Source of the DNA: Escherichia coli
GTDB taxonomy: Bacteria > Pseudomonadota > Gammaproteobacteria > Enterobacterales > Enterobacteriaceae
DNA length: 64,000 nt
Assembly (NCBI RefSeq): GCF_041886205.1
Contig: NZ_CP169029.1
Strand: one strand, 5' to 3'
Positions 36,175-41,068 of the stretch are shown here, one piece after another (position 1 is the first letter of the stretch; each line of letters opens with the position of its first letter). The position numbers and the translations under genes are program-made. A model generated the notes under the pieces. That model saw only the letters and a list, made by a program, of their open reading frames with translations, did no database searches and had not been told where the DNA came from.

Positions 36175-36337
36175 AATATACAAAATATTTATTAATCTAA
36201 TTATGGTATTTATATTTGGAATGCATTAATAATTTAATAATCTCACGTTTTTTTAAACGACTAATTATTTGATTGTTATCAGCATTGTTCTCGAATAAAT
36301 ACGTGAATATTTATTTTTTCATTTTCGGGAACGCAAG
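36175..36337 (+). promoter_or_regulatory. AT-rich junction and putative promoter of the molybdoenzyme operon
   Basis: 163 bp that is strongly AT-rich by eye (runs such as aatatacaaaatatttattaatctaattatgg), sharply different from the flanking genes; immediately upstream of the first inserted gene. Confidence 0.4.
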
Positions 36338-38719
36338 ATGGATACGCCAGACGAAAAGGAACGCATTACATTTCCGCAAGTATCACGACGTAGTTTTTTA
36401 CAAGCGACTTCCGCGCTTATCACTTTGCCTTTTATTTCTTCTGCCGCAAAGGCGCAATCTTCAGATGCGTCGCCAGAAGTTACAGCTCCGGTGGCTGATA
36501 AAGTCGTGCCCACCTGTAGCACATTTGACTGTGGTGGTAAGTGCGATATTCGGGCGCATATGCGCGACGGTGTGGTGACGCAAATTACCACGCTTCCCGA
36601 TAACGAACTGGATCCACAAATGCCGATTATGCGCGCCTGTGTTCGTGGTCGCGGCTATCGTAAATTTGTTTATCATCCAGACCGCCTGAAATATCCGATG
36701 AAACGGGTCGGTAAACGGGGCGAGGGTAAATTTGAGCGTATTTCATGGGATGAGGCGACGACCTTAATTGCCGATAACCTGAAAAGGATCACGCAACAAT
36801 ATGGCCCGGCTTCACGTTATGTCCATGTCGGGACGGCTGTTTCTGGTGGAACATTTTCTGGTGATGCGATGGCACGTCGGCTGTTAAATTTAACCGGTGG
36901 TTATCTTGAATATTATCACTCAGTTAGTCTGGGTAATACTGCGGCCGCAACGCCTTACACGTATGGCGTGGCGGCCAGCGGTAACTCGATGGACACTCTT
37001 CTGGATACCAAACTGGTGATCCTCTGGGGGCATAACCCAACGGAAACCATCTTCGGTCACACCAATTACTTTTTTCAAAAAATGAAGCAAAACGGTACGC
37101 GTTTTATCGTGGTGGATCCGCGTTATTCCGACACTGTATCTTCGCTTGCCGATCAGTGGATCCCGCTGCTGCCGACCACGGACAATGCGTTGATGGACGC
37201 GATGATGTACGTGATTATCAGCGAAAATCTCCACGATAAGCAGTTTATCGAAACTTACACGCTCGGTTTTGATGAAGATTCCATGCCTGAGGGCGTACCG
37301 GCGAACGAGTCGCTGTATGCCTACCTGTTCGGCGCGAAAGATGGCGTGCGCAAAACGCCGGAATGGGCAGAAAAAATTACCCACGTTCCGGCACAAACTA
37401 TTCGTCAACTGGCACGCGATTACGCCACTACAAAACCTGCGGCGCTGATTCAGGGTTGGGGGCCACAGCGACATATTTGCGGCGAACGTACCGCCCGAGG
37501 TTCAACTTTACTGGCCTCGATTACCGGTAACGTCGGCATCAAAGGTGGCTGGGCGGCAGGTTATGGCGGTAGTTCTAATCGTAAATTCTGCGTTGGACCA
37601 GATATGCCAGAAAATCCGGTACAAGCGAAAATCTCGATTATGAACTGGATGCAGGCGGCGGATGATGCTTCTAAAGTTACGCCGCAAGATGGGCTTAAAG
37701 GTGTCGATAAACTCGACAGTAATATCCGCCTGCTGTTCTCACTGGCAGGTAATTATCTGGCGAACCAGAACCCGGACGTCCACCAGGCCGCGAAGCTCCT
37801 TGAAGACGAATCTAAAATAGAATTCATCGTACTCAGCGATCTGTTCATGACTCCGAGCGCGAAATATGCCGATGTGTTGCTGCCGGAAACCAGCTTTATG
37901 GAACGCTGGAATATCGGCGAAACATGGGGAACAGCGAGCTATCTTATTCTGTCAGAAAAACTGATTGAGCCGGAGTTTGAACGTCGCACGGATTATGACT
38001 GGTTGCGTGACGTGGCGAAAAAACTGGGTGTCGAAGCCGAGTTCAGTCAGGGACGTGATGAGAAGCAATGGATTGAGCATATCTGGGAGCAAACTCGTCT
38101 GGCGATGCCGGATGAAAATTTGCCGGACTTCGCGACCCTGCAAAAAACACGTCGCCATCTTTTCAAAAGTGCGCCGCACATCGCTTTCGAAGCAAATATT
38201 CGCGATCCGCAGAATAATCCTTTCCCGACGCCTTCCGGCAAAATTGAGATCTTCTCTAAGCGTCTTTTTGATATGCAAGATCCAGAAATTCCCGCGCTTT
38301 CGCACTATGTCCCTGCCTTTGAAGGGCCAGAAGATAAACTGACGGCGAAATACCCGTTGCAGCTCATCACCTGGAAAGGGAAAAACCGTGCTAATTCCAC
38401 CCAGTATGCTAACCCATGGCTGCAAGAAGTTCAGACGCAAAAACTCTGGCTGAATCCGCAAGATGCAAAACAGCGCGGGATTAGCGAAGGAGATAGCGTA
38501 AAAATTTATAACGATCGTGGTGTGAGCATTATCCCGGTGGAAATAACCCCCCGTATCATCCCTGGCGTAGTTGCTATGCAGGCGGGGGCATGGTGGCAAC
38601 CGGATGCACAAGGTATCGATCGCGGAGGCTGTGCCAATGTACTGAGTTCGACCCGCATTACGGCGCTGGCGAAAGGGAATTCGCATCAAACAATGCTGGT
38701 GGAGGTTGAGAAAGCATGA
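36338..38719 (+). CDS. Molybdopterin (bis-MGD) oxidoreductase catalytic subunit, DMSO-reductase family (DmsA/YnfE-like), Tat-exported
   Basis: 793 aa; twin-arginine motif SRRSFLQA with hydrophobic region and AxA site; N-terminal Cys cluster CSTFDCGGKC; molybdopterin oxidoreductase-like throughout. Confidence 0.85.
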   Translation: MDTPDEKERITFPQVSRRSFLQATSALITLPFISSAAKAQSSDASPEVTAPVADKVVPTCSTFDCGGKCDIRAHMRDGVVTQITTLPDNELDPQMPIMRACVRGRGYRKFVYHPDRLKYPMKRVGKRGEGKFERISWDEATTLIADNLKRITQQYGPASRYVHVGTAVSGGTFSGDAMARRLLNLTGGYLEYYHSVSLGNTAAATPYTYGVAASGNSMDTLLDTKLVILWGHNPTETIFGHTNYFFQKMKQNGTRFIVVDPRYSDTVSSLADQWIPLLPTTDNALMDAMMYVIISENLHDKQFIETYTLGFDEDSMPEGVPANESLYAYLFGAKDGVRKTPEWAEKITHVPAQTIRQLARDYATTKPAALIQGWGPQRHICGERTARGSTLLASITGNVGIKGGWAAGYGGSSNRKFCVGPDMPENPVQAKISIMNWMQAADDASKVTPQDGLKGVDKLDSNIRLLFSLAGNYLANQNPDVHQAAKLLEDESKIEFIVLSDLFMTPSAKYADVLLPETSFMERWNIGETWGTASYLILSEKLIEPEFERRTDYDWLRDVAKKLGVEAEFSQGRDEKQWIEHIWEQTRLAMPDENLPDFATLQKTRRHLFKSAPHIAFEANIRDPQNNPFPTPSGKIEIFSKRLFDMQDPEIPALSHYVPAFEGPEDKLTAKYPLQLITWKGKNRANSTQYANPWLQEVQTQKLWLNPQDAKQRGISEGDSVKIYNDRGVSIIPVEITPRIIPGVVAMQAGAWWQPDAQGIDRGGCANVLSSTRITALAKGNSHQTMLVEVEKA

Positions 38720-39345
38720 GCCAATTTAAAGAATTTGCATCTGTCAGCGACAAACAATTAGGGTTCTTCATTGACTCTTCGCGTTGTTCTGGCTGTAAAG
38801 CGTGTCAGGTGGCCTGTAAAGACAAAAATAACCTTGAGGTTGGGCGACGTTTTCGCCGCGTGTATGAAGTGAACGGCGGTGGCTTCATCGCCACTGGAGA
38901 GGGCGGTGTGAGTCATAATGTCTTTGCTTATACCCTTTCTATTTCCTGTAACCATTGCGCGGATCCGATCTGTATCAAAAATTGCCCGACGATGGCGATG
39001 CATAAGCGTCCCGGAGACGGTATTGTGCGCGTGAATACTGATAAGTGCGTCGGTTGCGGTTACTGCGCCTGGTCCTGTCCTTACGGCGCACCGCAAATGA
39101 ATGAGCAGACCGGGCAGATGTCGAAATGCGATTTCTGTATTGATCTGCAAGCTAAAGGAGAACAACCCATTTGCGTGGCAACGTGCCCGTTGGGGGCGAT
39201 TAAGTTCGGCCCTATTGATGAGTTGCGTGAAAAGTATGGCGATGTCAGTGATGTGAAAGGTTTACCTGATTCGTCGATTACGCAGCCAAATCTGGTGATT
39301 AAACCGCATCAGGGCGCGGAAAAGGAGGCGTCACATCATGCATGA
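38716..39345 (+). CDS. 4Fe-4S electron-transfer subunit (DmsB-like)
   Basis: 209 aa with several Cys motifs of ferredoxin type (CSGCKACQVACK, CNHCADPICIKNCP, CVGCGYCAWSCP, CDFC…CVATCP); ATGA overlap with the upstream gene. Confidence 0.85.
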   Translation: MSQFKEFASVSDKQLGFFIDSSRCSGCKACQVACKDKNNLEVGRRFRRVYEVNGGGFIATGEGGVSHNVFAYTLSISCNHCADPICIKNCPTMAMHKRPGDGIVRVNTDKCVGCGYCAWSCPYGAPQMNEQTGQMSKCDFCIDLQAKGEQPICVATCPLGAIKFGPIDELREKYGDVSDVKGLPDSSITQPNLVIKPHQGAEKEASHHA

Positions 39346-40159
39346 ATTACCGTTAATGGCTTTTACGCTGTTGTTACAGGCATCGGTCGGTATGACCTTG
39401 TGGCTGGCGTTTCTTCATCGTCATATTTTAATCACCTCCAGCGCCCGCCCGGTTATGCGGCCGCCATTACTGTTGGCTTTTTTGGCAGGTGCCGTAGGGT
39501 TACTGATTTCTACCTTACATCTGGGTTATCCACTTAATGCGATGCATGCGCTAAGCCACTTTTCCAGTTCATGGCTGAGTCGGGAAATTATCTTTGGTGC
39601 GCTGTATCTGGCGCTATTGGGTTTATCCACATTACTGGTCATGTTACGCAAAGGCGGCTGGCAACTCCTGCTTATGCTAGCGGCAGTGGTCGGGATTGTT
39701 GATGTTTTCTGCATGGCGCAAGTTTACATCCATACGTCGATTATCACCTGGCAGCATTACAACACGCTGATTATGTTCTTAGGTACAGTGGGAATTCTCG
39801 GTTCAGCGCTGGTAGCAGTGTTTCGTATTAGCGGAATTTTGCCGCAGATTGATGCCCTGCGTAATGGATGCGTGTTGGTGATCGCTTTCCTGGTTCTGTT
39901 GCGTTTGTTGGTTCAGCCGTTGTGGATAGGGGATTTAACGGCAAATGCGATGCAGATAGCCACATTGCCACATGCGCCATTAGCGATGCTGGGACAGTTA
40001 AAACCCATACTGACACTAAGCTGGGGAATTTCCGTCATTGGGATGATGTTCTTTGCTGTCGGTGGTTGTAAAAAGAATATCCCGGCGGCGTTATTCGGTA
40101 GCGTAATGCTAGTGGGGAGTGAAGTTATGCTGCGTTTTGTCTTTTTTAGTATCAGCTAA
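39338..40159 (+). CDS. Integral-membrane anchor subunit (DmsC-like)
   Basis: 273 aa, about 8 hydrophobic segments; overlaps the B-subunit stop by 8 nt. Confidence 0.75.
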   Translation: MHELPLMAFTLLLQASVGMTLWLAFLHRHILITSSARPVMRPPLLLAFLAGAVGLLISTLHLGYPLNAMHALSHFSSSWLSREIIFGALYLALLGLSTLLVMLRKGGWQLLLMLAAVVGIVDVFCMAQVYIHTSIITWQHYNTLIMFLGTVGILGSALVAVFRISGILPQIDALRNGCVLVIAFLVLLRLLVQPLWIGDLTANAMQIATLPHAPLAMLGQLKPILTLSWGISVIGMMFFAVGGCKKNIPAALFGSVMLVGSEVMLRFVFFSIS

Positions 40160-41013
40160 TGTTAAGTCATAACATAACGATTGGCGCGGAATGCGCGCGC
40201 CAACGCTTTCGTTTTGCAACATGTCATGCCTGTGTCGAGGCTTGCCCGGCACAGGCGCTAACGCTGACAGAAGAGGGCGTAGCGGTCGACGCGGAACAAT
40301 GTATTGAGTGTGCGGTTTGCCAGTTTATTTGCCCGCAAGAGGCTATTCGTGGCGTTAATTCCCCTTTACGTTATTTTCGCAATCACACCCTGGTCGCACC
40401 TTTCACCACTATTGCGCCGACGCTGGAAGAACTTTTGCTATGGCATAAAGAGCAGGGGATCACAGCGATCGCGATTGATCTGAGTCAGGCGAAGGCATGG
40501 GAGCGCGCATTATTGCTGTTAAACGAACGCTTACGGCAATATGGCGAGGAAGGCTGGTCTGTGGTATCTCCACATACCAGTGAGGTGAATGTTTCCCGGC
40601 GTCGTTTGTTCCATGTGCAGCGTGCGGATGTTCAGATGACACAAATACAGCCAGGATTACGTCGGTTACATTATTTTTGGCCCCAGATTAGTGATGCTCG
40701 CCCGATGATGGATCCTCAAAAGTGTCAGCTTTGCGGTGCATGCTGGCGGGCCTGCGGGCAACAGGTCTTTTCGCTTAACGAAGGCCATTTACAAATCAAT
40801 GATGCCTTGTGTACCGGATGCCAAAATTGTATTGCTGTTTGTTTTCATCAGGCAATGACCGTTGAATTGACGATTCTACCGGCAAAAATTGTGAATCTTC
40901 ATGCTAATCGCAAAGTCTGTAAAACCTGTCAAAAATCCTTTCTTACTTTTCAGCAAAATGCGCAAAATTGTCTTTATTGCCAACGTCATCGCTATGGGAT
41001 GAGAGCATCATAA
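40159..41013 (+). CDS. Ferredoxin-like iron-sulfur protein with C-terminal Cys-rich tail
   Basis: 284 aa; Cys motifs CIECAVCQFICP, CQLCGACWRACG, CTGCQNCIAVC, plus terminal CKTCQ…CLYCQ pairs; TAATG overlap with the membrane subunit. Confidence 0.65.
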   Translation: MLSHNITIGAECARQRFRFATCHACVEACPAQALTLTEEGVAVDAEQCIECAVCQFICPQEAIRGVNSPLRYFRNHTLVAPFTTIAPTLEELLLWHKEQGITAIAIDLSQAKAWERALLLLNERLRQYGEEGWSVVSPHTSEVNVSRRRLFHVQRADVQMTQIQPGLRRLHYFWPQISDARPMMDPQKCQLCGACWRACGQQVFSLNEGHLQINDALCTGCQNCIAVCFHQAMTVELTILPAKIVNLHANRKVCKTCQKSFLTFQQNAQNCLYCQRHRYGMRAS

Positions 41014-41068
41014 AAGTCGAGTTGTTGCTAAAACTCATTTTATTTTAAAAAAATGTTACCTTCATCAA

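Follow-up and report, generated by a model that had tools for sequence, protein, structure and literature searches.

The window analysed here is a 64,000-nucleotide stretch of Escherichia coli chromosomal DNA (assembly GCF_041886205.1, contig NZ_CP169029.1), and our subject is the 284-residue product of the fourth gene of a dmsABC-like operon that lies in it between pbpC and ndk. This polyferredoxin, which we label X, belongs, as judged from its homologs, to a conserved, widespread and unnamed family of iron-sulfur proteins whose constant neighbours are the genes for the catalytic (A) and iron-sulfur (B) subunits of DmsA-type molybdoenzymes. The coordinates of the operon, of its genes and of the parts of X are collected in Table 1.

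Table 1. Features of the pbpC-ndk island in window coordinates (aa, amino acids).
Feature	Position	Strand	Basis or remark
Accessory island between pbpC and ndk, four-gene operon	36167..41021	.	blastn against K-12
Possible FNR-type site TTGATTGTTATCAG	36269..36282	+	1 mismatch to TTGAT-N4-ATCAA
DmsA/YnfE-family molybdopterin catalytic subunit, 793 aa, twin-arginine leader VSRRSFLQA	36338..38719	+	TIGR02166, Pfam
DmsB-type four-cluster iron-sulfur subunit, 209 aa, without signal peptide	38716..39345	+	TIGR02951, Fer4_11
DmsC-type membrane anchor, 273 aa	39338..40159	+	PF04976 DmsC, E = 1.7e-23
X, 284-aa polyferredoxin, WP_000948593, annotated '4Fe-4S dicluster domain-containing protein'	40159..41013	+	fourth gene
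X, N-terminal two-cluster ferredoxin domain, C12-C29 and C48-C58 motifs	40192..40332	+	Fer4_7, Fer4; 8 Cys invariant
X, middle alpha/beta domain, residues ~66-140	40354..40578	+	predicted structure
X, internal twin-arginine-like motif S146-R-R-R-L-F-H152	40594..40614	+	flexible loop
X, C-terminal two-cluster ferredoxin domain, C189-C199 and C218-C228	40723..40842	+	Fer4_21, Fer4_10; Cys invariant
X, four-Cys tail C254xxC257-x13-C271xxC274	40918..40980	+	invariant Cys; predicted beta-hairpins

The island and its operon

The gene order at the locus is yfhM-pbpC-[four genes]-ndk-rlmN-rodZ-ispG-hisS. When the pbpC-ndk region of E. coli K-12 is compared with the window by blastn, homology stops at 36166 and restarts at 41022, and the difference from K-12, which is without the island, is a clean 4.9-kb insertion/deletion made up of the four genes. 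The island was found in 379 of the 5426 complete E. coli genomes (∼7%), including strain 6EVA, which is 100% identical to the window over the tested 5.3 kb, and the same site is also filled in Salmonella arizonae/diarizonae, Enterobacter, Lelliottia, Huaxiibacter and Pseudocitrobacter. Since it occupies this site in several genera, yet is found in so small a share of E. coli genomes, the operon locus seems to be ancestral and to have been lost from most E. coli.

The first three genes encode a complete DmsABC-like set. The catalytic subunit reaches 1130 bits with TIGR02166 (cut-off 778), scores well under the specific DmsA, YnfE and YnfF models, and carries the Pfam domains Molybdopterin, Molydop_binding and Molybdop_Fe4S4, while the iron-sulfur subunit reaches 268 bits with TIGR02951 (cut-off 214) and matches Pfam Fer4_11. 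The junctions between the genes overlap throughout, by an ATGA, by 8 nucleotides and, between the dmsC stop and the X start, by a TAATG, which suggests that the genes are translationally coupled and that X is co-expressed with the enzyme. Just past this last junction, within codons 8-15 of X, lies a GC-rich inverted repeat (TTGGCGCGGAATGCGCGCGCCAA, 40181-40203) that a terminator scan flagged on both strands and that might affect the coupling. The FNR-like sequence TTGATTGTTATCAG is situated in an AT-rich intergenic region, 56 bp upstream of where the dmsA-like gene starts; four such sites with one mismatch occur in the window against 2.3 expected, so that this site is not significant alone.

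Architecture and conservation of X

X contains exactly 20 Cys, none of which varies in a family alignment of 46 sequences that reaches down to 22% identity. They fall into four cluster motifs and a tail. Three of the motifs have the spacing of typical ferredoxins (C48-x2-C51-x2-C54-x3-C58-P, C189-x2-C192-x2-C195-x3-C199 and C218-x2-C221-x2-C224-x3-C228), and a fourth, at the very N-terminus, is atypical (C12-x9-C22-x2-C25-x3-C29-P). An earlier reading of this DNA, made from the letters and translations (the sequence-only reading), had described two ferredoxin-like parts and quoted their motifs, which are indeed present in the translation of the open reading frame; its inventory overlooked the atypical first motif and so came to three clusters instead of four. 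Judged by its motifs, X thus has two ferredoxin domains with ligands enough for four [4Fe-4S] clusters, and the conservation of these ligands implies that the clusters would be bound. In line with this, the Pfam models Fer4 (47.8 bits, cut-off 21.1) and Fer4_7 (46.6 bits, cut-off 27) each match two regions, residues 20-64 (22-62 for Fer4_7) and residues 183-232, the latter also matched by Fer4_21 and Fer4_10, and X classifies with the 2x[4Fe-4S] bacterial-type ferredoxins (PF00037, PF12838).

Between the two ferredoxin domains, residues 59-188 are free of Cys. The sequence-only reading had correctly seen this stretch as Cys-free, and had taken it for a linker of ∼100 residues; it is 130 residues long, and its residues ∼66-140 are modelled as an alpha/beta domain with good confidence (predicted local distance difference test, pLDDT, 83-96). 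Conserved in this domain are the residues E91-L-L-x-W-H and N122. Its predicted fold has no match in the PDB, and the isolated domain has no Pfam match at E-values up to 10. It is followed by a low-confidence loop (residues 144-154, pLDDT <50), which carries the twin-arginine-like motif discussed below.

The C-terminal tail, C254-x2-C257-x13-C271-x2-C274, is predicted to form beta-hairpins with two CxxC knuckles that resemble a zinc ribbon or a rubredoxin knuckle, and its Pfam matches (zf-HIT, DZR/zinc-ribbon, HypA; E = 0.003-0.1) all stay below threshold. The sequence-only reading had pointed to this CxxC...CxxC tail, and the pattern holds up well: because its four Cys are invariant across 46 diverse sequences, we regard it as a site conserved for a metal rather than a coincidental pattern, and it would bind one further metal, probably zinc.

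The sequence of X has no N-terminal signal peptide, in agreement with the earlier reading, and no hydrophobic or transmembrane segment, and the protein is predicted to be cytoplasmic. Scans against Pfam and NCBIfam returned generic Fer4 matches, no DNA-binding or signalling domain and no named family that spans the protein; among the 25 best of 80 NCBIfam matches, none reaches its own cut-off. X has no match to Fer4_11 or TIGR02951 and is therefore not a DmsB-type subunit, nor does it match PF02613, the family of the TorD/DmsD chaperones, whose all-helical fold differs from the ferredoxin and alpha/beta domains predicted here. The view that X is an accessory protein and not one of the three core subunits is upheld, and the domain searches identified no characterised subunit or chaperone to which it could be assigned.

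A word-indexed search collected 14 close clusters, all labelled '4Fe-4S ... protein', and an exhaustive profile search 76 representatives at E < 1e-30; of the 150 best-scoring cluster representatives, about 100 have the full architecture. Two size classes can be told apart: 1) a short class of 280-310 aa, found in Enterobacterales, Vibrio, Photobacterium, Gallibacterium, Paraferrimonas, Uliginosibacterium and Brevibacillus, and 2) a long class of 330-365 aa, found in metagenome-assembled genomes of Chromatiaceae and Thiotrichales, which has four extra Cys in the middle domain. Taken together, the family extends over Enterobacterales, Vibrionaceae, Pasteurellaceae, Ferrimonadaceae, Betaproteobacteria, Bacillales and metagenome-assembled genomes of sulfur oxidisers. 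A scan of genomes for loci with a narrower family alignment returned 10 loci, and a homology search seeded with the Paraferrimonas protein added no new members. Half-size database entries were considered as stand-alone halves of X and rejected, as they are start-site truncations or frameshifted copies. Three copies (P0035, P0058 and P0069) are frameshifted past the middle domain and end in unrelated sequence, which points to pseudogenisation now and then or to errors in sequencing.

Against two other Escherichia species, dN/dS is 0.11-0.15 for X, 0.13-0.15 for dmsC and 0.06-0.09 for dmsA and dmsB. X is thus under purifying selection that is weaker than on dmsA and dmsB and similar to that on dmsC, and these values, together with the recurrence of the architecture, show that its open reading frame is real. 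Within the syntenic pbpC-ndk block, the identities to the respective E. coli proteins are 79-82% for PbpC, 94-97% for Ndk, 82-84% for DmsA, 86-88% for DmsB, 50-54% for DmsC and 39-44% for X, in which conservation is largely confined to the cluster ligands, the twin-arginine motif and a handful of middle-domain residues. Such a rate of divergence under purifying selection fits an accessory factor, as far as sequences can tell. The divergence that X shares with DmsC may stem from allelic replacement of the dmsC-X 3' end of the operon; co-evolution of DmsC with X is also possible.

The most conspicuous element outside the cluster ligands is the motif in the flexible loop, which reads V-S-R-R-R-L-F-H in E. 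coli X. Among 177 non-identical members with the full architecture, 171-173 show the pattern [RK]-R-x-[FLW]-[FL] in the corresponding position, 33-75 residues ahead of the third cluster motif, where composition-preserving shuffles lead one to expect 10.1. The frequencies along the motif are S 47%, R 89% (K 10%), R 100%, any residue, F 46% or L 42%, L 45% or F 45%, and R 45%, the second Arg being the fully conserved one, and the resulting consensus S-R-R-x-F/L-L/F-R matches that of the pathway for twin-arginine translocation (Tat), SRRxFLK (PMC3712460). We considered a Tat signal peptide and rejected it, as the motif is internal and no hydrophobic region comes after it: the 16 residues that follow are hydrophilic, with a mean Kyte-Doolittle value of -0.56 in the short and -0.29 in the long class, so that a cryptic signal peptide is not what the motif represents. 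By its sequence, the loop is best described as a bare Tat recognition motif, invariant within an otherwise fast-evolving segment.

Gene neighbourhoods of X

We compared 29 homolog loci, which represent at least 14 independent contexts and at least six chromosomal sites, plus plasmids. In 24 of the first 25, tblastn places DmsA-type and DmsB-type genes beside X, the remaining one being a 1.4-kb contig on which a DmsB-like gene alone stands beside it; in the four further loci, examined through their gene tables, X likewise lies beside DmsA-type and DmsB-type genes. The association with DmsABC-like operons, for which the sequence-only reading had proposed a co-occurrence analysis, therefore extends across the compared loci, and the constant partners of X are the A and B subunit genes. 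The contexts include pbpC/ndk (in Escherichia and the genera named above for this site), carB/kefF, GntR/cydAB, proVW/nrdF, GntR/fabV, and those of Gallibacterium and Paraferrimonas; the GntR/fabV context is shared with Rahnella megaplasmids, which carry the A-B-C-X type. X had been called an atypical accessory to a DmsABC-like core, a description that the comparison does not support, the A-B-C-X arrangement being conserved and widespread at the pbpC-ndk site and at others in many genera.

Around the two constant partners, the composition varies. Paraferrimonas has the order A-B-X-TorD, without DmsC, and on a Bacillales-like contig a DmsB-like gene stands directly upstream of X. Loci of the long class combine a multihaem cytochrome gene with A, B and TorD genes and have no DmsC gene; one of them (L013) has a small cytochrome c gene as an additional member. 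In about half of the contexts, a gene of the TorD/DmsD family (PF02613) follows X directly or lies elsewhere in the cluster, while the E. coli island contains no TorD-family gene. X had been seen as occupying the place where a maturation chaperone would be expected; since TorD/DmsD genes accompany it in many relatives, X does not replace the chaperone.

A twin-arginine leader with an ensuing hydrophobic stretch is present on each of the 13 partner A subunits examined, and no leader on the B subunits. Because the A subunits carry Tat leaders and X has no export signal, the mature A/B enzyme is predicted to be periplasmic and X to reside in a different compartment. By the same reasoning, X is unlikely to be the direct cytoplasmic electron donor that the sequence-only reading had listed as one possibility.

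In the short class, X is always co-oriented with the enzyme genes. In a metagenomic locus (L012, 5750-7974), X comes first and overlaps a gene for a 446-aa radical S-adenosylmethionine (radical-SAM) protein, which is followed by genes for TorD, an 861-aa molybdoenzyme, its iron-sulfur subunit and DmsC; no specific NCBIfam model matched the radical-SAM protein. With a TorD gene in about half of the contexts and, in this locus, the coupled radical-SAM gene, the neighbourhood of X is one of enzyme biogenesis. In a Chromatiaceae-like locus (L015, 10514-13800), genes for a histidine kinase and a sigma-54 response regulator come after X and a small partner, and all of these diverge from the genes for TorD, B, A and the cytochrome.

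Several smaller observations concern the same loci. The small partner, a Cys-free protein of 153-157 aa, directly follows X of the long class in L013 (6656-7117) and L015 (10044-10517); the two are 34% identical and have no Pfam or NCBIfam match. Genes for MsrA (L015) and MsrB (L013) lie close by, which hints at a substrate of the methionine-sulfoxide type. In Rahnella-type loci, a hypothetical 62-aa open reading frame directly follows X (L008/L009, 8878-9066; L030, 6839-7027) and has no family match. On a 53-kb IncFIB plasmid of Citrobacter freundii (NZ_CP099223; L029, 1-11617), an AraC gene and a TorD-A(860 aa)-B-C-X module lie between IS26 and ISKpn26, a position that marks the X-type reductase operon as mobile.

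Related operons have been met elsewhere. In Salmonella arizonae/diarizonae, which have the order pbpC-dmsABC-X-ndk, the identity of X with its E. coli counterpart is 39-40%. In Salmonella Typhimurium, STM2527, the fourth gene of an operon (STM2530-2527) that we take to lie beside ndk in strain LT2, is a probable ortholog of X by position and operon structure. STM2530-2527 has been described as a dmsABC-like operon with a fourth gene (bioRxiv 10.1101/2022.11.29.517730).

Candidate roles and known systems

From its architecture and surroundings we infer a cytoplasmic, metal-containing X that would work with the adjacent A and B subunits during their maturation. The chances appear to us about even that X is a NapF-like factor for the maturation or proofreading of the adjacent DmsA/DmsB-type enzyme before export; among the options listed in the sequence-only reading, a NapF-like assembly factor is the one that fits the gene context best. 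X would take up its four [4Fe-4S] clusters and, in the tail, a structural metal as it folds in the cytoplasm, and it would join the pre-export DmsA/DmsB complex of the Tat-dependent molybdoenzyme. There, it may load or reductively condition the iron-sulfur and molybdenum cofactors or supply reducing equivalents, or, alternatively, report the completion of the cofactors and so take part in proofreading. The RR loop would dock to machinery that handles signal peptides, either a TorD/DmsD-type chaperone or the TatBC receptor.

Some points weigh against this role. To our knowledge, the canonical E. coli DmsABC and YnfEFGH operons do not include an X-type gene, so that there would be no general requirement for X. 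For TorD-type chaperones, the hydrophobic part of a leader is considered the main recognition element, and X has no such part. The family is known here from sequences and gene contexts alone, and in L015 X is transcribed with the histidine kinase and the sigma-54 regulator and not with the enzyme. The likeness to NapF is itself limited, as a hidden Markov model (HMM) of the X N-domain gives NapF 41.7 bits and unrelated polyferredoxins 25-43 bits, and the RR motifs of the two proteins are not aligned by hmmsearch. Finally, STM2530 failed to support growth dependent on dimethyl sulfoxide (DMSO), and no substrate was assigned to it (bioRxiv 10.1101/2022.11.29.517730).

A more far-reaching form of the maturation role, which we hold to be rather unlikely, would make X a new class of Tat quality-control factor: an iron-sulfur checkpoint whose bare RR peptide, held on a flexible loop, engages TatBC or a TorD-type chaperone and couples the release of DmsAB-type enzymes for export to the iron-sulfur or redox status of the cell, with NapF as a minimal, permuted relative of the same idea. 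The significance of the family would be higher if the RR loop truly were a docking element for Tat or a chaperone.

Two other roles seem to us quite improbable. X could be a fourth structural subunit for electron transfer that assembles with DmsAB, is co-exported by Tat hitch-hiking and extends or branches the periplasmic wire. Its four clusters would make a plausible wire, its gene is translationally coupled to dmsC and, in the short class, co-oriented with those of the enzyme, DmsB itself hitch-hikes without a signal peptide, and Paraferrimonas, which is without DmsC, needs another partner for electron input. What speaks against such a subunit is that X occurs with differing electron-input modules (DmsC, multihaem cytochromes or none) and evolves far faster than DmsB (33-44% against 80-88% identity), and that NapF, the closest functional analogue with a similar motif, is cytoplasmic; moreover, in the structures of PsrABC and FdnGHI the anchor's quinol site lies right against the final B-subunit cluster, with no obvious gap to be filled. 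The other role is that of a cytoplasmic redox sensor, or of a low-potential electron carrier for a regulator or radical-SAM maturase, linked to the reductase by co-regulation alone. L015, where X and the 157-aa partner are co-oriented with the kinase and the regulator, is the one context in favour of a sensor, and the overlap with the radical-SAM gene in L012 would suit a carrier; X also has weak Pfam matches to the iron-sulfur domain of LdpA, which we take to be a redox sensor, and zinc ribbons often mediate contacts with proteins or nucleic acids. The lack of a DNA-binding or signalling domain in X argues in the opposite direction, as does the absence of regulator and radical-SAM genes from the E. 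coli island and most short-class operons, and the conserved Tat-type motif would be left unexplained.

That X substitutes for a TorD/DmsD-type chaperone missing from the operon is, in our estimate, very improbable. The absence of a TorD-family gene from the E. coli island, and the last position of X, where dmsD-like genes often lie, would be in keeping with it, against which stand the TorD-family genes that many relatives, including Chimaeribacter, have directly behind X or elsewhere in the cluster, the missing PF02613 match and the fold that is not all-helical; in addition, E. coli encodes DmsD elsewhere.

The way in which complex, Tat-exported molybdoenzymes acquire their iron-sulfur clusters and gain clearance for export is understood only in part, and a maturation factor of the kind proposed here would offer two mutable handles on the question, the invariant RR motif and the four-Cys tail. 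X also flags an uncharacterised respiratory enzyme of the STM2530 type at the conserved pbpC-ndk locus, present in ∼7% of complete E. coli genomes, and the alignments would allow a Pfam or NCBIfam model specific to the family to be made.

Among known systems, FwdF, MvhB and HycF match the generic ferredoxin domains of X alone, with whole-protein template modelling scores (TM-scores) of at most 0.31; they are wires of contiguous cluster domains, without the alpha/beta insert, the RR motif and the four-Cys tail. The dmsABC/torD/'napF' operon of Haemophilus influenzae, in which a ferredoxin-type gene is co-transcribed with dmsABC and a TorD-like gene (PMC4792463), resembles the loci of X in context and differs in order, with torD ahead of the ferredoxin gene; within the Pasteurellaceae, a member of the X family is present in Gallibacterium. 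In Shewanella oneidensis, deletion of dmsH (SO_1432, in dmsEFABGH) impairs the reduction of DMSO and iodate; the gene follows a TorD-like one, and its product, DmsH, is predicted to be an accessory protein of the cytoplasm (PMC11302344). With 468 nucleotides, 155 aa and an annotation as hypothetical (supplement of PMC3219624), it was rejected as a counterpart of X by gene length (155 against 284 aa) and annotation, and it matches the 153-157-aa partner protein of the long class, by length only.

The closest parallel is NapF, which is encoded, like X, in the operon of a Tat-exported enzyme with a molybdenum-bis(pyranopterin guanine dinucleotide) cofactor and, like X, is not universally present. 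The E. coli protein, as translated from K-12, has 164 aa and is, like X, soluble and without a signal peptide, with four [4Fe-4S] Cys motifs, one of which is atypical, long-spaced and preceded by T-I-G-x-x-C (the third motif in NapF, T-I-G-D-A-C101-x7-C109-x2-C-x3-C-E-P, compared with T-I-G-A-E-C12-x9-C22-x2-C-x3-C-P in X). Both proteins also contain a twin-arginine consensus without a hydrophobic region, which is N-terminal in NapF (SRRGIL) and internal in X (residue 147). X is larger by its alpha/beta domain of ∼75 aa and its CxxC...CxxC tail, and it accompanies DmsA-type reductases of the S-/N-oxide type, in contrast to NapF, which accompanies NapA and NapD. In an hhalign comparison, residues 4-66 of X align to residues 94-159 of NapF (probability 96%, E = 1e-9). 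A 'permuted NapF' was considered and rejected, as just the N-domain of X aligned to the C-terminal domain of NapF and the score was unspecific. The NapF model TIGR00402 is absent among the 25 best of the 80 NCBIfam matches of X, and one family member (P0042) reaches 42.5 bits with it, over one domain only, against a cut-off of 102.2. Because the NapF score falls within the polyferredoxin range and the RR motifs are unaligned, what we claim is resemblance: judged by HMM score and architecture, X is not a member of the NapF family, and its likeness to NapF would be a functional one.

According to the title of a Wolinella study, NapF is reportedly attached to the membrane through NapH, an arrangement that parallels the coupling of dmsC and X. 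NapF is cytoplasmic, binds NapA and is needed for iron-sulfur assembly in NapA of Rhodobacter (PMC10609526; PMC3712460); it is nearly dispensable in E. coli and missing from many nap operons (PMC10609526; PMC4159696). Its role is still debated, and it is the single ferredoxin-type accessory factor described (PMC10609526). Beside it, the X family would stand as a second, larger and widely distributed example.

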